Shown here: piece after piece, positions 13,200 through 58,345 of the stretch
How the letters are laid out: each line of letters begins with the position of its first letter
Numbering within the stretch: the first letter of the stretch is position 1
Position numbers and translations under genes: made by a program
Notes under the pieces: model-generated
Databases searched by the model: none
What the model was told of the DNA's origin: nothing
Seen by the model: only the letters and a program-made list of their open reading frames with translations
Assembly (NCBI GenBank): GCA_964504715.1
Contig: CAZDEP010000001.1
Span: 97,842-161,841 of the forward strand
Origin: an uncultured Candidatus Saccharibacteria bacterium
GTDB lineage: Bacteria > Patescibacteriota > Doudnabacteria > UBA920
DNA: 64,000 nt
Direction: 5' to 3'

Positions 13200-14366
13200 T
13201 TATGGTAAATATTTTTTCCCCTTTAGGTCTGCGGGCAAGTAGTCATCTTTGCCATATTTTTCGTAACCCTTCCCATAGTTTAAATTTTTCATGAGCTTGG
13301 TGGGGGCATTTCGGATTTTAAGAGGTATGGGCAAATTGCCATGGGTTTTTACGTCCTCCGTGGCGGCCAGGTAAGCGTCGTAGGCAGAACGGTCTTTTTT
13401 GCAATTGGCCAAATAGGACACGCCATGGGCTAAATTTATGGCACATTCCGGATAGCCTATGGTCTCGCAGGCCCGAAAGACCGCATTGGCGACTACCAGC
13501 GCGGTGGGCTGGGCAAGTCCAATATCCTCACTCGCAAAAATCACCATTCTTCTGGCTATAAACAGCGGGTCTTCGCCGGCCTCTATCATCCTCGCTAAAT
13601 AATACAGCGCCGCATTAGCTTGGCTGGCGCGCATGGATTTTATAAATGCGCTAATGGTGTTGTAATGCTCGTCGCCTGCTTTGTCATACCTTAAGTGTTT
13701 GGATTGAACGGTGTTTTTTAAATTATCCAGCGTAATTTTGCCGTAAAGGCTTAAGCAGTTGTCAATCACGGTAAGCGCCTGCCTGGCGTCGCCGTTTGCC
13801 AAGCTTATTAACCAGTCAATTGCCGGATTCGCAGAGGATGCCCCTCTAACAAGAGGGGCATCCTCTGAGTTTTCAACAAAAGCGTGGTTGATAATTTTAC
13901 GCATTTCTGTTTCCGACAACTCGCTTAGCACAAATACCCGCATTCTGGATAGTAATGCGGGGATAATTTCAAAAGACGGGTTTTCCGTGGTCGCGCCAAT
14001 TAAAGTCAGCCCGCCAGATTCCACGTGAGGCAGCAAAAAATCCTGCTGCGCTTTGTTGAAGCGGTGGATTTCATCCAAAAATAATATTTTGGGTTGGCCA
14101 AGCAAAGGGGGCTTATCAACAATCTTTCTTATATCATCTTTGCCCGCGGAAACCGCCGAAAGTTCGTGGTATTCGGCATTTACTGCCTTGGCATAAATCC
14201 GCGCCAGCGTGGTCTTGCCTACGCCCGGCGGCCCCCAGAGGATAAAACTAAATAAATGCCGGCTTTCTATAGCCTGCCTAAGCGGTTTGCCCTCCCCCAC
14301 CAAATGCTCCTGGCCTACAAATTCACCAAGGGATCTGGGACGAATTTTATTTGCCAGAGGTTCCAT
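13200..14366 (-). CDS. rarA: Replication-associated recombination protein A (AAA+ ATPase RarA/MgsA)
   Basis: Walker A GPPGVGKTT, Walker B ILFLDEIHRFNK, MgsA C-terminal domain. Confidence 0.9.
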   Translation of the reverse strand: MEPLANKIRPRSLGEFVGQEHLVGEGKPLRQAIESRHLFSFILWGPPGVGKTTLARIYAKAVNAEYHELSAVSAGKDDIRKIVDKPPLLGQPKILFLDEIHRFNKAQQDFLLPHVESGGLTLIGATTENPSFEIIPALLSRMRVFVLSELSETEMRKIINHAFVENSEDAPLVRGASSANPAIDWLISLANGDARQALTVIDNCLSLYGKITLDNLKNTVQSKHLRYDKAGDEHYNTISAFIKSMRASQANAALYYLARMIEAGEDPLFIARRMVIFASEDIGLAQPTALVVANAVFRACETIGYPECAINLAHGVSYLANCKKDRSAYDAYLAATEDVKTHGNLPIPLKIRNAPTKLMKNLNYGKGYEKYGKDDYLPADLKGKKYLP

Positions 14367-18190: not shown

Positions 18191-19723
18191 TCAAACTAAT
18201 AAGCTTTCCCCGGTCATTGACGCGGGTTTTTTTTTGTGCATTAGGCTTAAAATGGTGGGAGCGATGTTGGCCAAAGAACCATTAAAAGATTTAAGATTTA
18301 AAGATTTAAAATTGGAAACCAATATAAACGGAACAAGATTGGTTGTGTGGGCGGTGTGTTTTTCGCCCGTAACTGAATCAACATTCTGTTCCGCATTGCC
18401 GTGGTCCGCGGTCACTATTGCAACCCCTTTTTTAGACAGCACAGCCTCGCAAACCCGTTTAAGTTCCCTGTCCACGGTTTCCACGGCGGTAATTATTGCG
18501 CTTTTGTTTGCCGTATGGCCCACCATATCGGCATTGGCAAAATTTACCACCAGAAAATCGTCGCCGGCGCTTATTCTCTCTATGGCTTTGTCCGCAATTT
18601 CCCGCGCGCGCATTTCGGGCGCCAAGTCGTGCGTGGCCACATCGCGCCGGCTGTCAATTAAAAAATGTTGTTCCGCCACATGCGGGGTTTGCCTGCCGCC
18701 GTTGAAAAAGAAAGTCACGTGCCCGTACTTTTCCGTTTCCGCAATGTGCGACTGCTTTAAGCCGGCCCGGCTAATTTCCGCCGCCAAAGTTGTATCCAAC
18801 TTTTGCGGCGGGAAGGCAACCACCGCGTCTATGTCGGGATGGTATTCGGTCATGGTTACAAAAAACAAATTTTGTTTTTTTGCGCGCTCCACAATTTTTA
18901 GCGAGAGCTGGCGCGGCCGGTCGGTGCGGAAATTAAAGAAAAAAATACCATCGTTATCCTCGACCGTGTACGCTTTGCCGCTATCATCCAAAAAAACCAG
19001 CGGTTCCAGGTACTCGTCCATAGCCCCTTCTTGGTAAAGCGCGCGCAGGGCCTCGGAGGGCTTAAGGCCTTTGAAAGTTTTGCCTTCGCCTTCAAAAATT
19101 GCCTTTTCCGCTTTTTCCGTCCGGTGCCAGTTTTTGTCGCGATCCATGGCAAAATAGCGGCCGGTGGCCGTGGCAATAAAGCCTATTCCTAAATCTTCCA
19201 CCACTTTCTCCAGCTCGCAGAGGTACTTATGGTTTTCCTTGGGAGGCGCGTCGCGCCCGTCGGTAAAGGCGTGAATAATTATTTTGCTTATGCCGGACTG
19301 TTTGGCCGCTTTTAAAAATCCGTGCAAATGTTCCTGGTGGCTATGCACCCCAATGGGGCTGACCATGCCTAAAATATGCAGCGCGGAGTTGTATTTTTTG
19401 ACATGCTCAAACAGCTTAACAAAAGCCGGATTGGACTTAAACTCGTCATTGTTTAAAGCTTTGGATATGCGGACAAGTTCGGTGTCTATGGTTCTGCCCG
19501 CCCCCATTGTCATGTGGCCGATTTCGCTGTTGCCAATGGTGCCCTTGGGCAGGCCCACGGCTTCTTCGGACGCGTCCAAAACAGCATGGGGGTATTTCTC
19601 CATGGCATAATCAAAAAATGGGGTATGAGCCTCGGCAATGGCATTGTGTTCGCTTTCCTGCCGAAGGCCCCAGCCGTCTAAAATAATAAGGCAAACTGGG
19701 CGTATACCATCATACTTTATCAT
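18191..19723 (-). CDS. gpmI: 2,3-bisphosphoglycerate-independent phosphoglycerate mutase
   Basis: N-terminal LIILDGWG, metal-binding ADHGN motif, 510 aa. Confidence 0.9.
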   Translation of the reverse strand: MIKYDGIRPVCLIILDGWGLRQESEHNAIAEAHTPFFDYAMEKYPHAVLDASEEAVGLPKGTIGNSEIGHMTMGAGRTIDTELVRISKALNNDEFKSNPAFVKLFEHVKKYNSALHILGMVSPIGVHSHQEHLHGFLKAAKQSGISKIIIHAFTDGRDAPPKENHKYLCELEKVVEDLGIGFIATATGRYFAMDRDKNWHRTEKAEKAIFEGEGKTFKGLKPSEALRALYQEGAMDEYLEPLVFLDDSGKAYTVEDNDGIFFFNFRTDRPRQLSLKIVERAKKQNLFFVTMTEYHPDIDAVVAFPPQKLDTTLAAEISRAGLKQSHIAETEKYGHVTFFFNGGRQTPHVAEQHFLIDSRRDVATHDLAPEMRAREIADKAIERISAGDDFLVVNFANADMVGHTANKSAIITAVETVDRELKRVCEAVLSKKGVAIVTADHGNAEQNVDSVTGEKHTAHTTNLVPFILVSNFKSLNLKSFNGSLANIAPTILSLMHKKKPASMTGESLLV

Positions 19724-26118: not shown

Positions 26119-26198
26119 CCTTTCTATTTTAACACAAAATCCGTATTGTCAATAAATTTATTAAAAAAACATCCCGCTGTAAGCGGGATGTTTTTTTA

Positions 26199-30284: not shown

Positions 30285-31172
30285 TTGACCAAGATGAAAA
30301 TCCGGGAATGCCTAAAAAAATATTCAAACATAGAAATCGAGCTCCTTTTGGCGGATGTGTTAAAAAAGCCTAAGGAGTTTATTTTTTTGCATCCCGAGTT
30401 TATTTTATCATCTAAACATCTTAAGACTTTGGAAGCGCAAGTTAAGAGAAGACAGGAGGGCGAGCCCGTGGCTTACATTTTGGGCTACAAGGACTTTATG
30501 GGGCGTCGTTTTGCCGTAAATAAGGATGTGCTTATTCCCCGCCCGGAGACTGAAGGGCTTGTCGAACTTGCGCTCGACAGAATTAAGAATTATGAATTAG
30601 GAATTAAGAATGCCAAATCGTTACGTATTTTGGACGTGGGCACAGGCAGCGGGTGCATAGCTGTTTCTTTGACAGCAATGATGCCCGTTGCGCCAAGCAA
30701 CGGGTATCATTGCGAAATCACAGCGTCGGATATATCAAAAAAAGCTTTGGTAGCAGCCAAGCAAAATGCAAAAAGCCACAAAGCAAAAATCACATTCATC
30801 CACAGTGATTTGTTTAAGGACATTCCTGGCAAGTTTGATGTGGTTGTGGGCAATCTTCCTTACGTGCCTATGAAAATGCTTAGGAAGCATTTGTTGCACC
30901 GCGCCAAGTTTGATGCCCAGGACCCTTTTGCCGGTTTAAAATACGAACCCAAATTCGCGCTAACGGACGGGACCAGTATTTGGCTAATCTACAAACGTTT
31001 TTTTGAGGAAGCCAGGGCGCATTTAAACCCCGGCGCGGTGATTCTGCTTGAAATTGACCCGGCATCGAGAAAGTTTTTAAAAACTTATCAGCAGAAGTAT
31101 TTGCCGGGAGCTAAGGTGAAATTTTATAAAGATGTAAACAATTTGTGGAGGTATATGGAAATAGCAAGATGA
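30285..31172 (+). CDS. prmC: Release factor glutamine N5-methyltransferase
   Basis: ILDVGTGSGCIAVSL SAM-binding motif and VVVGNLPYVP (NPPY-like). Adjacent to prfA. Confidence 0.85.
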   Translation: MTKMKIRECLKKYSNIEIELLLADVLKKPKEFIFLHPEFILSSKHLKTLEAQVKRRQEGEPVAYILGYKDFMGRRFAVNKDVLIPRPETEGLVELALDRIKNYELGIKNAKSLRILDVGTGSGCIAVSLTAMMPVAPSNGYHCEITASDISKKALVAAKQNAKSHKAKITFIHSDLFKDIPGKFDVVVGNLPYVPMKMLRKHLLHRAKFDAQDPFAGLKYEPKFALTDGTSIWLIYKRFFEEARAHLNPGAVILLEIDPASRKFLKTYQQKYLPGAKVKFYKDVNNLWRYMEIAR

Positions 31173-31203
31173 CGGTCTTCTTGCGCCGCAAGAAGACCGT
31201 CAT
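31169..31203 (+). repeat. Perfect palindromic hairpin ATGACGGTCTTCTTGC-GCC-GCAAGAAGACCGTCAT overlapping the prmC stop; second copy at 58306-58340
   Basis: 16-bp arms identical at both loci with loops gcc and ttt. Further terminator hairpins at 31231-31257 and 31285-31318. Confidence 0.7.
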
Positions 31204-31319
31204 CATTTGGGCAGAAAACACGGGCAATAAAAACGAAAGGCTCAACCGGTTGAGCCTTTCGTGTGCACTCCGAGCTTATTTTAAAAGGCTCACACATAGT
31301 GTGAGCCTTTGTATTTTTC

Positions 31320-41398: not shown

Positions 41399-41710
41399 AT
41401 GGCGAAGAAACTCTTTATCGGCAGTCTGCCTTGGGCGACTACCGGTGACGACCTTAAGCAGCTTTTTTCCCAACACGGCACCGTTACTTCGGCTACCGTG
41501 ATAATGGATAAAATGACTGGCAGGTCTCGCGGTTTTGGTTTCGTTGAATTTGAAAACGATGCCGAAGCTGACGCCGCAGTTGCAGCCTTAAATGGTTACA
41601 CTTTGAGCGGCAGGCAAATTACCGTTAACGAAGCCCGTCCTATGGAAGACAGGCCTCCCCGCAGAAATTTCGGCGGCGGTAACGGCGGCGGTTGGAACAA
41701 CAACCGTTAA
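41399..41710 (+). CDS. Glycine-rich RNA-binding protein (single RRM)
   Basis: RNP-2 LFIGSL, RNP-1 RGFGFVEF, C-terminal GGGNGGGWNNNR tail. Confidence 0.9.
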   Translation: MAKKLFIGSLPWATTGDDLKQLFSQHGTVTSATVIMDKMTGRSRGFGFVEFENDAEADAAVAALNGYTLSGRQITVNEARPMEDRPPRRNFGGGNGGGWNNNR

Positions 41711-45666: not shown

Positions 45667-46212
45667 TTAGTTTTGGTAGTTTTTGGCAAATTCAAGCAAT
45701 TCCTTAAGCATATTTCTGCCTATTTCCATATCCGTTGCTCTTTTTTCAAGCTGGGACTGGCCTTTGGTACGGCCCTTTTTTTCAGGCGCTAACCTGTCGA
45801 AATCTGTCGTGGTTTTGGCTACTACATTCCAATAATCTCTTGCGAGCGTTTGCAGTTGCAGAAGTTTATTTGATGCTCCAGAATAATCCGGTGCATTGTT
45901 TTTTAGGTTTTCTCCGAAAACCGCCCTCCCCAGAAAGTAATCCGCTCCCGAAAGTTCTTCCACGCTGGTATTTATAGTTCCTTGGCTTTTGTATATTTCC
46001 TTAAGAAGTTCATACTCATCGCTTAAAAGTGACTTAAATGCCTGCTCAAAATTAGGGCTTGATTCCCTGACGAATTGATTAAGCTCGTTTGGAGTGTAGT
46101 CTCTTTGGGAAAGCATCTCTTGGATTTTGTACCAGCCGGCTTTTACCCTCCCGAGAAGCTCAATTTTCCTGGCTTCGGGATTTCCCATTTCCGGCGAATT
46201 GAAACTTGTCAT
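45667..46212 (-). CDS. Hypothetical protein
   Basis: 181-aa ORF with no recognisable motif. Bidirectional terminator at 45627-45663. Confidence 0.4.
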   Translation of the reverse strand: MTSFNSPEMGNPEARKIELLGRVKAGWYKIQEMLSQRDYTPNELNQFVRESSPNFEQAFKSLLSDEYELLKEIYKSQGTINTSVEELSGADYFLGRAVFGENLKNNAPDYSGASNKLLQLQTLARDYWNVVAKTTTDFDRLAPEKKGRTKGQSQLEKRATDMEIGRNMLKELLEFAKNYQN

Positions 46213-46340: not shown

Positions 46341-47720
46341 ATGATCAAACTTTACAATACCCTGTCCCGTAAAACTGAAGAGTTTAAACCCATCAGCAAA
46401 GGAAAAGTCGGGCTTTACACATGCGGGCCCACGGTTTACGACTTTGCCCATATTGGAAATTTAAGGACTTATATTTTTGAAGACCTGCTTCATCGCGTTT
46501 TGGAATATAACGGCTACACGGTGGATCACGGTATGAATATTACCGATGTGGGGCATTTGGTCGGCGACGGGGACGAGGGCGAGGACAAATTGGAAGTCGG
46601 CGCCAAGCGCGAGGGCAAATCCCCTCTGGAGATTGCCAAGTTCTACACGGACAAGTTTTTCGCCGACATGGATGAATTAAATATTATCCGGCCCAACCAA
46701 ATTTTGTCCGCTACCCAGAGCATTCCTGAGCAGATAAAAATAATTAAAATTCTGGAAGAAAAAGGCTTTGCTTACAAAGGAGATCAAGCCGTATATTTTG
46801 ATACTTCCAAATTCCCCGACTACGGCAAACTTTCCGGTCAGAAATTAAATGAAAAGAAAGTCGGGGTGCGCGAAGAAGTAATAATCGACAAAGACAAGAA
46901 AAATCCGGCCGATTTTGCCTTGTGGTTCTTTTTGGCCGGGCGATATAAAAATCACATTTTGCACTGGCCTAGTCCCTGGGGCGAAGGCTTTCCGGGCTGG
47001 CATATAGAATGTTCCGCAATTTCACGAAAACTTTTGGGCCAGCCGTTTGACATACACTGCGGCGGCGTGGACCACATTGGCACCCACCACACCAACGAAA
47101 TTGCGCAAAGCGAAGCCGCGTTCGGCGCTCCCCTTGCGAATATTTGGATGCATGGGGAATTTTTGCTAGTGAACGCGTCACGCATGGGCAAAAGCGAAGG
47201 CAACCTGCTCACTTTGGATGAATTAAAAAAGCGCGGGTTTGACCCGCTTGATTATCGCTACATGTGCTTGCAAGCCCATTACCGGACGCAGTTGAATTTT
47301 ACGTGGGAAACCTTGCAGTCCGCTCATAATGCCCTGGGAAGACTAAGATCGCAAATCGCAAAATTTAATAGTGACCATAGCTCGTCAGATCCAAAAATTT
47401 TCGAACAAGCTTTTTTGGAAGCGATAAATGATGATTTGAATATGCCCAAAGCTCTTGCTCTGCTCTGGGATTTTGCCAATAAAGTTGACGGCCGTCAATT
47501 TTATAAAAAATTGGATAAGGTGCTGGGACTGGATTTATTTAAAGTCGAGTCGGAAGATTATCCCGACAGCCTTAAAGGCTTAATTGAGCAAAGGCAGACA
47601 GCAAAAAACCTCAAAGACTTTGCTAAGTCCGATGACCTTAGAAAGCAAATTGAAGTTTTGGGGTATGTAGTTTCGGATACGCCGGAAGGCCAAAAGATTA
47701 AAAAGAAAATTAGTATTTAA
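46341..47720 (+). CDS. cysS: Cysteinyl-tRNA synthetase
   Basis: HIGH variant FAHIGNLRTY, KMSKS variant RMGKSEGN, zinc-binding Cys. Confidence 0.95.
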   Translation: MIKLYNTLSRKTEEFKPISKGKVGLYTCGPTVYDFAHIGNLRTYIFEDLLHRVLEYNGYTVDHGMNITDVGHLVGDGDEGEDKLEVGAKREGKSPLEIAKFYTDKFFADMDELNIIRPNQILSATQSIPEQIKIIKILEEKGFAYKGDQAVYFDTSKFPDYGKLSGQKLNEKKVGVREEVIIDKDKKNPADFALWFFLAGRYKNHILHWPSPWGEGFPGWHIECSAISRKLLGQPFDIHCGGVDHIGTHHTNEIAQSEAAFGAPLANIWMHGEFLLVNASRMGKSEGNLLTLDELKKRGFDPLDYRYMCLQAHYRTQLNFTWETLQSAHNALGRLRSQIAKFNSDHSSSDPKIFEQAFLEAINDDLNMPKALALLWDFANKVDGRQFYKKLDKVLGLDLFKVESEDYPDSLKGLIEQRQTAKNLKDFAKSDDLRKQIEVLGYVVSDTPEGQKIKKKISI

Positions 47721-49380: not shown

Positions 49381-50025
49381 ATGACTAAATTACCAAACAG
49401 TTTACAAAAGTTGATAAATGAGTTAAGCAAACTCCCCGGAATTGGGCCAAAAACCGCCCAGCGACTGGCCTTTTATTTGCTTAAAAGGGATAACATAGAC
49501 AATTCCGCGCTGACTCAGGCCTTAAACGAACTTAAGGGCGGAGTGGTTTTTTGTTCCATTTGCCACAATATGGTCGAAAGCGACCCTTGCATAACTTGCA
49601 CTGACCAAACCCGGGACGCTTCCCTTTTGTGCGTGGTGGAAGAGCCTTTGGACGCTTTGGCAATAGACAAAACCGGCAAGTTTAAGGGCAGGTACCATGT
49701 GCTGGGCGGGGTCTTAAATCCCATGGAAGGCATAGGGCCCGAGCAATTAAAAATAGATTCATTATTAGGGCGGATCAGCGCCGGTCGAGAAGATGACCCT
49801 CTCGCCGCGAGAGGGTCATCTTCTCCGGTTATGGAAATTATTATTGCCACCAACCCCAGTTTGGAGGGAGAAGCCACAGCCATGCACTTATCTAAAATTA
49901 TTAAGCAAGCAAACCCGGAGATAAAAATTACCCGCATTGCGCGCGGCCTGCCAATGGGCGGCGACCTGGAATACGCCGACGACATAACCCTCATGCGCGC
50001 CTTGGAAGGCCGAAGGGAATATTAA
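49381..50025 (+). CDS. recR: Recombination protein RecR, carrying a 13-aa in-frame insertion encoded by a perfect palindrome
   Basis: HhH motif, C4 zinc finger (CSICHN...CITC), Toprim domain. Insert AGREDDPLAARGSSSP between GIGPEQ and the Toprim ATNPSLEGEAT. Confidence 0.9.
   Translation: MTKLPNSLQKLINELSKLPGIGPKTAQRLAFYLLKRDNIDNSALTQALNELKGGVVFCSICHNMVESDPCITCTDQTRDASLLCVVEEPLDALAIDKTGKFKGRYHVLGGVLNPMEGIGPEQLKIDSLLGRISAGREDDPLAARGSSSPVMEIIIATNPSLEGEATAMHLSKIIKQANPEIKITRIARGLPMGGDLEYADDITLMRALEGRREY
49787..49825 (+). repeat. 39-nt perfect palindrome (GAGAAGATGACCCTCTCG-CCG-CGAGAGGGTCATCTTCTC) inserted in frame in recR
   Basis: Seen directly. Length is a multiple of 3. Flanked by ccgg..cgg. 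Resembles the GC-centred palindromes at 31169 and 58306. Confidence 0.7.
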
Positions 50026-50172: not shown

Positions 50173-50727
50173 GTGAATGTGGACTACGATATACTGCCGA
50201 ACGAACAAAAAAATGAAAACCCGATCCCTTTTGCCAATAATAGCGTAGACGAGGCGGTAATGAGCAACGTGCTGAGCGATACTCCCTATTTGGATTTTGA
50301 ATTAGTAGATCCCGCAACGAAAGATAGATTGCGTGCATTTTGGCAGAGCATTGGAAGTAAAGGGGCTATTGAATCGCAGTCATATGATGAAATTTTAGAC
50401 GATATTGCTGTCTTCCAAAAAATGAGAACAATAGACGATATTTTGCGCGTTTTAAAAGAAGGTGGAATGCTTAGGATTTACGAAAACTACAATCATGCCC
50501 GTCCCAATGCCTATATTAAAGTTATTGAACAGCTGCAAAAGAAAGAAGGGATAGATTTTGTGGAAGATGATGAGGAGGAAAAAAGAATTGATCCTCTGCT
50601 AAAAAAAGAGAACGGCGAATATTTGGAAGAGAGAAGAAAATATTCAAACCCTCGAGGACTCGAAGATTATGTGCCAAGGCTCCATAATAAAGTTTATAAG
50701 ATAATAAAGAAAACCAATGAATTTTAA
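50173..50727 (+). CDS. Hypothetical acidic protein (GTG start; possibly frameshifted continuation of a 30-codon ORF at 50036-50128)
   Basis: No recognisable motif. Its frame is open from 50044 and overlaps an ATG-initiated 30-codon ORF in another frame. Confidence 0.4.
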   Translation: MNVDYDILPNEQKNENPIPFANNSVDEAVMSNVLSDTPYLDFELVDPATKDRLRAFWQSIGSKGAIESQSYDEILDDIAVFQKMRTIDDILRVLKEGGMLRIYENYNHARPNAYIKVIEQLQKKEGIDFVEDDEEEKRIDPLLKKENGEYLEERRKYSNPRGLEDYVPRLHNKVYKIIKKTNEF

Positions 50728-51109
50728 AGGACATAGGCCACGAAGCTCATCGGAGTATCATGAAAGGCCAAAGAAAATTAAGATCACTAAAATCCCGCCC
50801 GGCGATTTGCCCGAAAATATCAGAGAGCAGTGGGTGGGTGTTGTTATTCCGCTTGCGCCTTTAGATGAACGGCTAAGGTACACAACCGGAGTTGAGTTGG
50901 GGGAACCCCAAAACCAAAATGGCTTTGAAGTTTTGGCCACTGAGGCTATTGCAGCCTTGCTAAAAAAATGTGAAGAACTTCAAAAAAATGGAGATGACGC
51001 AGCTTATGAAAAAGCCCACCAGGCGTGGCAAGCCTGGCTTAATTCATATTGGAATCGTGAAGGCATTAGGCTGGAGTTTAAAAGAGATTGCTGCGTTATT
51101 GTAGAATAA
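50717..51109 (+). CDS. Hypothetical protein, translationally coupled to the preceding ORF
   Basis: 11-nt overlap with the 50173 ORF. Basic N-terminus, then helical. Confidence 0.4.
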   Translation: MNFKGHRPRSSSEYHERPKKIKITKIPPGDLPENIREQWVGVVIPLAPLDERLRYTTGVELGEPQNQNGFEVLATEAIAALLKKCEELQKNGDDAAYEKAHQAWQAWLNSYWNREGIRLEFKRDCCVIVE

Positions 51110-51145
51110 AAAAACGTCCCGCTTACAGCGGGACGTTTTTTTATA
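51110..51145. terminator. Intrinsic terminator with conserved core CCCGCTTACAGCGGG (third member of a recurrent hairpin family)
   Basis: aaaaaaacgtcccgcttacagcgggacgttttttt. Same apical sequence as 2108-2141 and 26165-26196, with co-varying stem extensions. Confidence 0.65.
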
Positions 51146-51446
51146 TCTTGGTTATTTCAACTTCGGTGAAACTTTGCCTGTGGCCTATGGTCCTTCTGTA
51201 TTTGGATTTAGATTTGTATTTAAAGACCCTGACCTTGTCTCCCCTGCCCTGCTTTAAGACCTTGCCTTCTACTTTGGCGCCGGAAACAAAGGGCTTGCCC
51301 AAGTTTACGTCTGTGCCGTTTGAGGTCAAAAGTACCTGGTCAAAATTTATGGTTGAGCCGGCTTCGCCGCTGAGTTTTTCCACCTGGATTTTGTCGCCTT
51401 TTTTTACCAAGTATTGCTTGCCGCCTGTTTGAATGATTGCTAACAT
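51141..51446 (-). CDS. rplU: 50S ribosomal protein L21
   Basis: MLAIIQTGGKQYLVKKGDKIQVEKL, 101 aa. No adjacent rpmA. Confidence 0.9.
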   Translation of the reverse strand: MLAIIQTGGKQYLVKKGDKIQVEKLSGEAGSTINFDQVLLTSNGTDVNLGKPFVSGAKVEGKVLKQGRGDKVRVFKYKSKSKYRRTIGHRQSFTEVEITKI

Positions 51447-58213: not shown

Positions 58214-58305
58214 TTATAAAAAAAACAGGCATTATTGCTTATACAGTAATGCCTGTTTTTAATTTGCAAGGTAGATTGCCAGCGGTTTGTTCGGCATAAC
58301 ATAAA

Positions 58306-58340
58306 ATGACGGTCTTCTTGCTTTGCAAGAAGACCGTCAT
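58306..58340. repeat. Second copy of the palindromic hairpin ATGACGGTCTTCTTGC-TTT-GCAAGAAGACCGTCAT; bidirectional terminator
   Basis: Arms identical to 31169-31203. A separate hairpin plus U-run at 58233-58268 terminates the GT39 gene. Confidence 0.7.
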
Positions 58341-58345
58341 TTGGT

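Follow-up and report, generated by a model that had tools for sequence, protein, structure and literature searches.

The palindrome in recR

The stretch of DNA analysed here (the window) comprises 64,000 nucleotides of contig CAZDEP010000001.1 (GenBank assembly GCA_964504715.1, positions 97,842 to 161,841 of the forward strand), and the subject of this analysis is a perfect palindrome that lies in frame within its recR gene; the nearest homologues of the encoded RecR carry the name Candidatus Doudnabacteria RecR, from the Patescibacteria or candidate phyla radiation (CPR) group. The locus consists of the following features:

49381..50025, plus strand: recR host gene; 214 amino acids (aa), Pfam domains RecR_HhH, Toprim_4 and RecR_C
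49787..49825, no strand assigned: recR palindrome, the inserted element; perfect palindrome, whose 39-nt removal leaves an in-frame loop
49786..49824, plus strand: 13 codons from the recR element, with the conceptual translation REDDPLAARGSSS; exact 13-aa gap against PDB 3vdp

The palindrome (GAGAAGATGACCCTCTCGC-C-GCGAGAGGGTCATCTTCTC) is 39 bp long and consists of two 19-nt arms, 100 % complementary, around a central C at position 49806; the 18 + 3 + 18 arrangement described in the original prediction is the same object. Its GC content is 0.59 vs. ca. 0.45 across the window; stems of this length are expected approximately 2e-6 times per 64 kb, and the arm motif had no match in 100 shuffles. 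The window contains 21 hairpins with at least 13 pairs, compared to 0–1 in shuffled sequence. For the recR hairpin folded as RNA, the free energy is predicted at -39.9 kcal/mol (z = -6.5). It is not an intrinsic terminator: the hairpin lies in the middle of an open reading frame (ORF), no T-tract follows, and the terminator scan makes no call. In Rfam 15, at the gathering score, the only matches in the window were four tRNAs; the best match at the palindrome itself was a chance microRNA match (E = 0.11).

The palindrome is real and no product of misassembly, since the insert recurs across independent assemblies; within this lineage (P0001, P0361) it is carried by an NCBI contig, an ENA contig and a Logan assembly, and a variant occurs in at least five further independent assemblies, which disposes of the artefact concern raised with the original prediction. 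Chimeric reads can yield palindromes, and the uptake sequences of Neisseria are biased towards repair genes; yet the recurrence of the insert, and the finding that no oligomer in the window is over-represented at anything like one copy per kb, leave a practically negligible probability for an assembly artefact or a pair of DNA uptake sequences.

The inserted segment has exact boundaries. An alignment of the window RecR to the solved structure 3vdp (phmmer) contains a gap of exactly 13 inserted residues; Doudnabacteria RecR proteins without an insert have 203–204 aa, mostly with an 8–9-aa loop at this position, compared to 214 aa in the window. Subtracting exactly 39 nt from the window recR yields the in-frame loop RISAGPVMEIIIAT; the removal joins C^CG to a Pro codon, giving RISAGPVME in the window and RISGKPVLE in locus L081. 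The corresponding empty site in the closest relative, which has no palindrome (L085; P0002), reads ...CAG C^CG GTA AGT. Because exact removal restores this in-frame Pro codon, the recR insertion was precise and proceeded without target duplication. Exact removal also keeps the frame in the palindrome-bearing recR genes of L081 and L115 and in the rarA genes of the window and L087 (see below), and all coding copies with clear boundaries measure 36, 39, or 42 nt. The right junction ^CG(G/A) was seen in two independent insertion events, and may reflect a target preference. The ccgg and cgg flanks pointed out in the original prediction are present in the window, as native Ala-Gly and Pro-Val codons; as a target duplication they fail, since the left repeat of CCGGT is absent in L081 and L086, and the offset of 44 nt is no multiple of 3.

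In an AlphaFold2 model based on 47 homologues, RecR residues 134–151 are unstructured, with predicted local distance difference test (pLDDT) scores below 50 at residues 136–147; the insert segment is located between helix 125–133 and the Toprim strand 152–156. The loop at the insert site is expanded in 40 of the 120 best RecR homologues, and the site would, judging by this model, be a tolerant location. An in-frame, lineage-specific insertion of 13 residues had been predicted, and this description agrees with the gap relative to 3vdp, with the shorter insert-free Doudnabacteria proteins, and with the modelled position in an unstructured loop; the 13 residues are not conserved across RecR orthologues, most of which have no insert.

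If the insert is translated, the predicted RecR peptide across it reads ...SAGREDDPLAARGSSSPVM.... Ribosomal bypassing is known in T4 gene 60 and in the yeast mitochondrial byp elements, and a stable hairpin within an ORF, with GGT on both sides, could in principle be skipped in this way, or be removed from the mRNA, and thus remain untranslated. However, the reading frame stays open through the element, whose length is divisible by 3; a hop of 44 nt from GGT to GGT would shift the frame and destroy IIIATNPSLEGEAT; and the lengths of the clear-boundary coding copies are those predicted by selection on translated inserts. Translational bypass is therefore extremely unlikely.

Related and unrelated palindromes in Doudnabacteria

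A second gene in the window carries an in-frame palindrome of similar sequence:

13200..14366, minus strand: rarA/mgsA host gene (replication-associated recombination protein A); Pfam domains MgsA_C, AAA_assoc_2 and AAA; PDB 3pvs, E = 1e-90
13832..13867, no strand assigned: rarA palindrome, second in-frame family member; perfect, 36 bp, arms of 16 nt and a loop of 4 nt

The rarA palindrome (CAGAGGATGCCCCTCT-AACA-AGAGGGGCATCCTCTG) encodes SEDAPLVRGASS; its reading phase is that of the recR copy (core E-D-x-P-L ... R-G-x-S-S), and the arms of the two window copies match at 13 of 16 bases (p ~5e-5, composition-preserving shuffles). RarA proteins without the insert have 375–376 aa, the window RarA 388 aa. 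Among rarA orthologues, the copy in L087 is perfect and includes a compensated change from A:T to G:C; in L088 the left arm is kept, the 4-nt loop is inverted (AACA vs. TGTT), and 9 nt of the right arm are lost. The same core occurs in recR of L115, in a 42-nt perfect palindrome that matches the rarA copies at 13–14 of 16–18 positions (p ~1e-4 or lower; 13/16 and p ~1e-4 for the arms of the window rarA copy); in an intergenic copy in L104, which matches the window rarA arms at 14/14 positions; and, at the RarA site of L119, in an inverted repeat of 17 bp. The arms have the core AGARG-NNN-CCCTCT in common, and by this sequence evidence the palindromes of recR, rarA and their relatives form one family. 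A palindrome family, as suggested by the original prediction, exists; its true members, which that prediction missed, are the rarA copy and the copies in other Doudnabacteria, and the kinship of the gene-end hairpins at 31168 and 58304 is weak. Viral contigs scanned with the family-core pattern yielded one unrelated high-GC match (L111), and viral contigs scanned for the recR, 31168-type and L113 palindromes yielded no related copy. An alignment of RarA proteins has at least three insertion hotspots in Doudnabacteria (window residues ~88, 162 and 371), with palindrome-like peptides such as PSSPSSPSGRGQGEG and PPLKLRGGVQNPPLKIRGGQGG; the DNA was looked at for the residue-162 site only.

In other Doudnabacteria, different perfect palindromes of 29–42 nt occupy the same RecR loop. 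The recR palindrome of L113 (GTAGGGGAGGGTTT-C-AAACCCTCCCCTAC) is of a GTAG type, unrelated in sequence to the window element; the identical palindrome appears in frame twice, in recR and in an unrelated ORF of 806 aa (a glycosyltransferase-like gene), and both copies read VGEGFKPSPT followed by the same short tail. The RecR loop of L114 contains a compound GTAG...CTAC hairpin, and that of L112 a decayed palindrome; the degraded copies in L088 (rarA) and L112 (recR) are as expected of a dispensable element. As a caveat, the loci were selected for long RecR loops and provide no unbiased hotspot statistic. None of the indels of at least 5 aa listed in neighboring genes of the orthologous loci was palindromic. 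A peptide-only test for palindrome-encoded loops did not discriminate, since shuffled proteins reached stems of up to 22; the contig scan with back-translated RecR patterns (GGDLEYAD, IIATNPSLE) was generic, and the matches listed were mostly non-CPR RecR. Two further observations concern these loci. In L114 (10400–10470), an outer GTAGGGGC...GCCCCTAC stem surrounds a second GC-rich hairpin, possibly a nested insertion of one palindrome into another. In L113 (3209–3871; RecR P0070), a second variable site at residues 194–201 (SGSADKPV before KITRIA) is common to four RecR clusters; its DNA is not palindromic.

The related arms at separate loci bear on the possibility of a local origin, in which a fold-back or template-switch error during replication would have copied neighboring recR sequence in inverted orientation and the palindrome would never have been mobile. 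Template-switch correction of quasi-palindromes is an established mutational mechanism, and the arms are perfectly complementary; yet neither arm resembles the sequence of the empty site, related arms are found at non-homologous loci (rarA, L115 recR, the L104 intergenic copy), and identical copies reside in two genes of L113. An origin in place is very unlikely on these grounds; template-switch correction is also discussed in PMC6649704.

Proposed gain and maintenance, and relationship to known elements

The distribution of the recR palindrome is patchy. The palindrome in L081 (P0003) is GAGAAGATGACCATCTCGC-G-GCGAGATGGTCATCTTCTC, and that in L086 (P0004) has the L081 arms with C as the central base; both are perfect, and the window palindrome is distinguished from them by one compensated transversion pair, C:G to A:T (Pro to His, Gly to Trp). 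Between the window and L081, the palindrome region differs at 3 of 42 nt, whereas in the remainder of the gene the two sequences disagree at 167 of 600 nt and 115 of 200 third positions (~57 %), a contrast between palindrome and flanks with P ~9e-4 and ~1e-4. In neighbor-joining trees of 35 RecR proteins with the loop masked, the three bearers of the 39-mer (P0001, P0003, P0004) formed a clade in none of 300 bootstraps. Each pairs instead with insert-free relatives: P0001 with P0002 (94.8 % identity, bootstrap 0.99), P0003 with P0013 and P0018 (94–96 %, 0.87), and P0004 with P0010 (94.3 %, 0.71). Homologues of the insert-free loops of these sisters (8–9 aa; NSQESLVK, KDKGSRIN, GLPASQPVS and others) are present in many other lineages, and the empty RecR loop is therefore the ancestral state. 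Taken together, a patchy distribution, a shared site, and near-identity in a synonymously saturated host gene are the classical marks of an element that is mobile or spreads horizontally; for these reasons, at least three recent gains are preferred over ancient presence under selection.

The arms do not diverge independently. Across seven aligned family members and 16 outer pairs (110 cells), all 110 arm-pair cells are Watson-Crick and none is G-U; 7 of the 16 pairs have changed on both sides, none on one side, and slid controls pair at ~50–60 %. The chance that the two orthologous compensated changes coincide is ~1e-4. The loops flip as well; in the rarA copy of L088 the loop appears as AACA, an inversion of TGTT, and the central base of the recR copies is C (window, L086) or G (L081). 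The lack of wobble pairs, the compensated transversion, and the inverted loops argue for a process at the level of DNA and not for selection on an RNA stem. The arms could be maintained if one is copied from its partner by fold-back or template switching, a mechanism that has been invoked for coding palindromes (PMC6649704), or could be renewed by re-insertion.

These observations also weigh on a rival view, in which a single ancient insertion was inherited vertically, kept by selection as a functional cis-element in genome-maintenance genes, and lost many times; candidate roles would be, in the mRNA, a site for RNase III or for attenuation and, in the DNA, a site for protein binding or a cruciform. 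Consistent with such a function, the window and L081 have the element at an identical point, between similar linkers; the hairpin is of very high stability (~-40 kcal/mol); and its sequence hardly varies, even though synonymous changes that leave the hairpin intact would be possible at six third-position pairs; this near-invariance may be due to recency alone. Both window copies reside in repair or recombination genes, which echoes the bias of intragenic repetitive extragenic palindromic (REP) sequences reported in PMC3733652. Against a conserved cis-element, the insert-free loops of the sister proteins are mutually homologous and of ancestral type, and would not be regenerated by independent deletions; unrelated palindromes occupy the same loop elsewhere, and most RecR have none; the L088 and L112 copies decay; the 15 changed cells include no G-U pair, which argues against selection at the RNA level; and the L113 element also sits in a glycosyltransferase-like gene. 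A selected ancient insertion appears unlikely in view of this evidence.

The recR palindrome is probably a miniature, non-autonomous mobile element, similar to REP sequences and to Rickettsia palindromic elements (RPEs) in behavior but a member of neither family by sequence, that has been gained repeatedly, is translated, and is tolerated. The element would have inserted precisely, without target duplication, into a Pro codon (C^CG) of the loop that leads from helix 125–133 to the Toprim strand, and would then be translated as 13 hydrophilic, disordered residues, presumably neutral for RecR. Other family members are found in frame in the rarA gene of this genome, within recR or rarA in other Doudnabacteria, and between genes. 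At one site, the recR copy would have been gained, or moved between lineages, at least three times, which would explain the near-identical palindromes in lineages with synonymously saturated recR genes; the gains could be enzymatic insertions or short recombination patches, and the shared S-x-x ... P-V-x linkers would fit patch transfer. DNA-level copying, by fold-back or template switch, or renewal by re-insertion, would keep the arms strictly Watson-Crick, and within genes the surviving copies would be those with a length that is a multiple of 3, in tolerant loops.

Several results count against a mobile element. Among the 39 of 64 window ORFs scanned, there is no transposase or other candidate mobilising gene; all are housekeeping-like. 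The copy number within the 64-kb window is low, with one exact copy and one relative, and degenerate copies do not exceed chance. A metagenome scan for the family core (pattern GATGMCCCTCT..AGAGGGKCATC) returned 21 loci, 20 of which are unrelated, high-GC, terminator-like hairpins, with L104 as the sole plausible further copy. A target-site signature was sought at the junctions, and none was found beyond the right junction ^CG(G/A) of the two independent events. The RecR trees were built on 192 amino-acid columns, and the insertion point and similar linkers (S-x-x ... P-V-x) shared by the window and L081 also fit a single origin followed by transfer or loss.

Among known systems, MITEs (transposable elements of the miniature inverted-repeat type) measure 70–300 bp, with terminal inverted repeats around an internal region and a target-site duplication; the element described here is no MITE, as it has 39 bp, is wholly palindromic, shows no conserved duplication, and restores the frame upon exact removal. 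RPEs are reportedly (Ogata and colleagues, 2000 and 2002) selfish palindromic DNA inserted in frame in housekeeping genes; elements of the RPE-1 type are ~100–150 bp long, imperfect, and decay over time. In its behavior the window element resembles RPEs, as the original prediction had proposed: it is an in-frame insertion in the surface loop of a functional gene, absent from orthologues, as indicated by the 3vdp gap, the AlphaFold2 loop and the empty relatives, and a translated, tolerated insert with a consistent reading phase and a patchy distribution would be RPE-like as well. In contrast to RPEs, the Doudnabacteria elements are 29–42 bp long and perfect, have arm-coupled substitutions, and show no sequence similarity; the window copy, 39 bp long and in a Doudnabacteria host, has no match in Rfam or elsewhere. 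The small dispersed repeats (SDRs) of Nostoc and the GC clusters and byp elements of yeast mitochondria are hairpin-forming mobile sequences of ~20–50 nt that are tolerated inside genes; they differ in their hosts and sequences, and byp elements are bypassed, not translated.

The byp elements are also mentioned in a study of mitochondrial genes of Nematomorpha, which contain perfect inverted repeats in coding sequence, and for which arm conversion or template switching and a parasitic character were proposed (PMC6649704). The Doudnabacteria palindromes resemble these repeats in their perfection within genes that are translated, in an all-or-none perfection, and in gains and losses between species; the Nematomorpha repeats differ in that both arms encode conserved protein segments, extend up to 284 bp, and do not derive from insertions of a dispersed family (PMC6649704), whereas the Doudnabacteria palindromes supply extra loop residues and belong to sequence families.

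The closest comparison is with REPs. According to the survey by Di Nocera et al. (2013; PMC3733652), intragenic REPs with GTAG or CGTC tags are catalogued in several phyla, and many of their host genes function in DNA replication and repair; the statement in the original prediction that in-frame palindromic elements are rare outside Rickettsia was therefore too strong. Like the window element, REPs are GC-rich palindromes of 20–40 bp; they are found mostly at gene ends, while a minority lies in frame and encodes loop residues, and replication and repair genes are frequent hosts in both cases. REP ends may supply stop codons, as the palindrome at 31168–31204 does for the upstream ORF prmC. REP stems are 5–13 bp and usually imperfect, unlike the perfect 19-bp stem in the window, and Doudnabacteria, as CPR members, are a group outside that survey (PMC3733652). 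The window element, a GC-rich palindrome of 39 bp, also differs from REPs by its lack of a tag: it is flanked by ggtc and cggt, and the rarA element by aact and cgaa, without GTAG or CGTC; a GTAG start is found only in the unrelated, in this respect REP-like, elements of L113 and L114. REPs are dispersed as tens to hundreds of mostly extragenic copies in a genome and are associated with a gene for a Y1 tyrosine transposase (RAYT). Within 64 kb, one exact copy, one coding relative, and two distantly similar gene-end hairpins were counted, and no transposase domain was found among the 39 of 64 window ORFs scanned. In-frame palindromic DNA is thus already known from RPEs and intragenic REPs; the host group and the perfect, tag-less, long stem set the present element apart, and full-text literature searches turned up no account of elements like these from CPR or Patescibacteria.

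A bolder interpretation, doubtful but worth stating, extends the mobile-element reading to a previously undescribed class of tag-less, perfect elements of 29–42 bp in Doudnabacteria, and perhaps other CPR bacteria, that would "home" to RecR and RarA loops across species; they would be spread by an enzyme with a site preference, which would place hairpin DNA 5' of CG(G/A) with no duplication, or by patch transfer through transformation, and would be renewed by fold-back copying, which would keep the arms free of mismatches. In a stronger version, the hairpins may have been co-opted as DNA- or RNA-level regulators of recombination genes. The concentration in RecR and RarA loops may reflect targeting, or just tolerance.

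CPR bacteria are a new host group. Their genomes are tiny and are assumed to contain little mobile DNA, yet in this case short palindromes remodel surface loops in proteins central to repair. Much of the variation in length between orthologues of RecR and of RarA is explained in this way, and gene calling, alignment and phylogeny can be led astray by it. Exact boundaries, empty sisters with 94–96 % identity, coupled arms and loop inversion combine into a tidy natural system for studying how REP-like hairpins move and stay perfect. This system may help to explain the bias of such elements towards replication and repair genes, noted in 2013 without a mechanism being given in the excerpted text (PMC3733652).

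Other palindromes and genes in the window

Further palindromes lie at gene ends, between genes, and within prmC:

31168..31204, no strand assigned: gene-end palindrome over the prmC stop codon TGA; arms of 18 nt; pairs with 58304–58342
58304..58342, no strand assigned: intergenic palindrome, 3 nt downstream of an amino-acid-kinase-family gene (minus strand); arms of 18 nt; sister copy of 31168–31204
30675..30713, plus strand: imperfect 39-nt palindrome in frame in prmC, candidate old copy; 16/18 pairs; 8-aa gap against T. maritima HemK
31233–31262 and 31284–31310 in the window, 4867–4899 in L081, 1022–1061 in L086, 18060–18092 and 11044–11079 in L112: AAAGGCTCAACC...GGTTGAGCCTTT palindromes
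47479–47504 in the window, 1074–1109 and 2535–2568 in L081, 5635–5668 in L114: TTGACGGCCGTCAA-centred palindromes

The hairpins at 31168 and 58304 have almost the same arms. The original prediction had likened the recR element to these two palindromes (there placed at 31169 and 58306), but this kinship is weak; a single 8-mer, AAGATGAC, is held in common, below the similarity threshold used. Neither of the two occurs in orthologous spacers; for 58304, the intergenic regions compared were those of L081 and L112. The internal prmC palindrome was considered as a third insertion and rejected, as the loop of close relatives is equally long and no clean insertion is evident.

Three closely related bidirectional terminator hairpins (26162–26198, 51106–51144 and 2110–2138) form a separate gene-end family, laid out as an A-run, C(A/G)TCCCGCT, a 3-nt loop, AGCGGGA(T/C)G, and a T-run; one is located directly 3' of a tRNA-Thr gene. 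The AAAGGCTCAACC...GGTTGAGCCTTT gene-end palindromes are kept in sequence in several Doudnabacteria lineages, often just 3' of recR or of the kinase gene, and the TTGACGGCCGTCAA-centred palindromes recur near cysS and dnaB in several lineages, with an operator-like appearance. An imperfect palindrome (16/18 pairs) lies at 18775–18814 within the phosphoglycerate mutase gene gpmI (minus strand) and does not look like an insertion; it falls in a presumably conserved segment (FPPQKLDTTLAAE), and could represent either a coding quasi-palindrome like those of Nematomorpha or a chance occurrence.

Downstream (3') of recR, the window contains two to three ORFs (50173–51432), of which 50173–50727 and 50717–51109 are without a Pfam match; these ORFs are absent in the syntenic loci L081 and L112–L115, where rplU sits closer to recR. 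A conserved small gene is found by cysS-dnaB-recR (45667–46212 in the window, 544–1068 in L081); the window gene has no Pfam match at 1e-5, and its relatives have PaaX_M and weak Cas2-like matches. Finally, a eukaryote-type RNA recognition motif (RRM_1, E = 7e-25) is present in the 103-aa product of the gene at 41399–41710.

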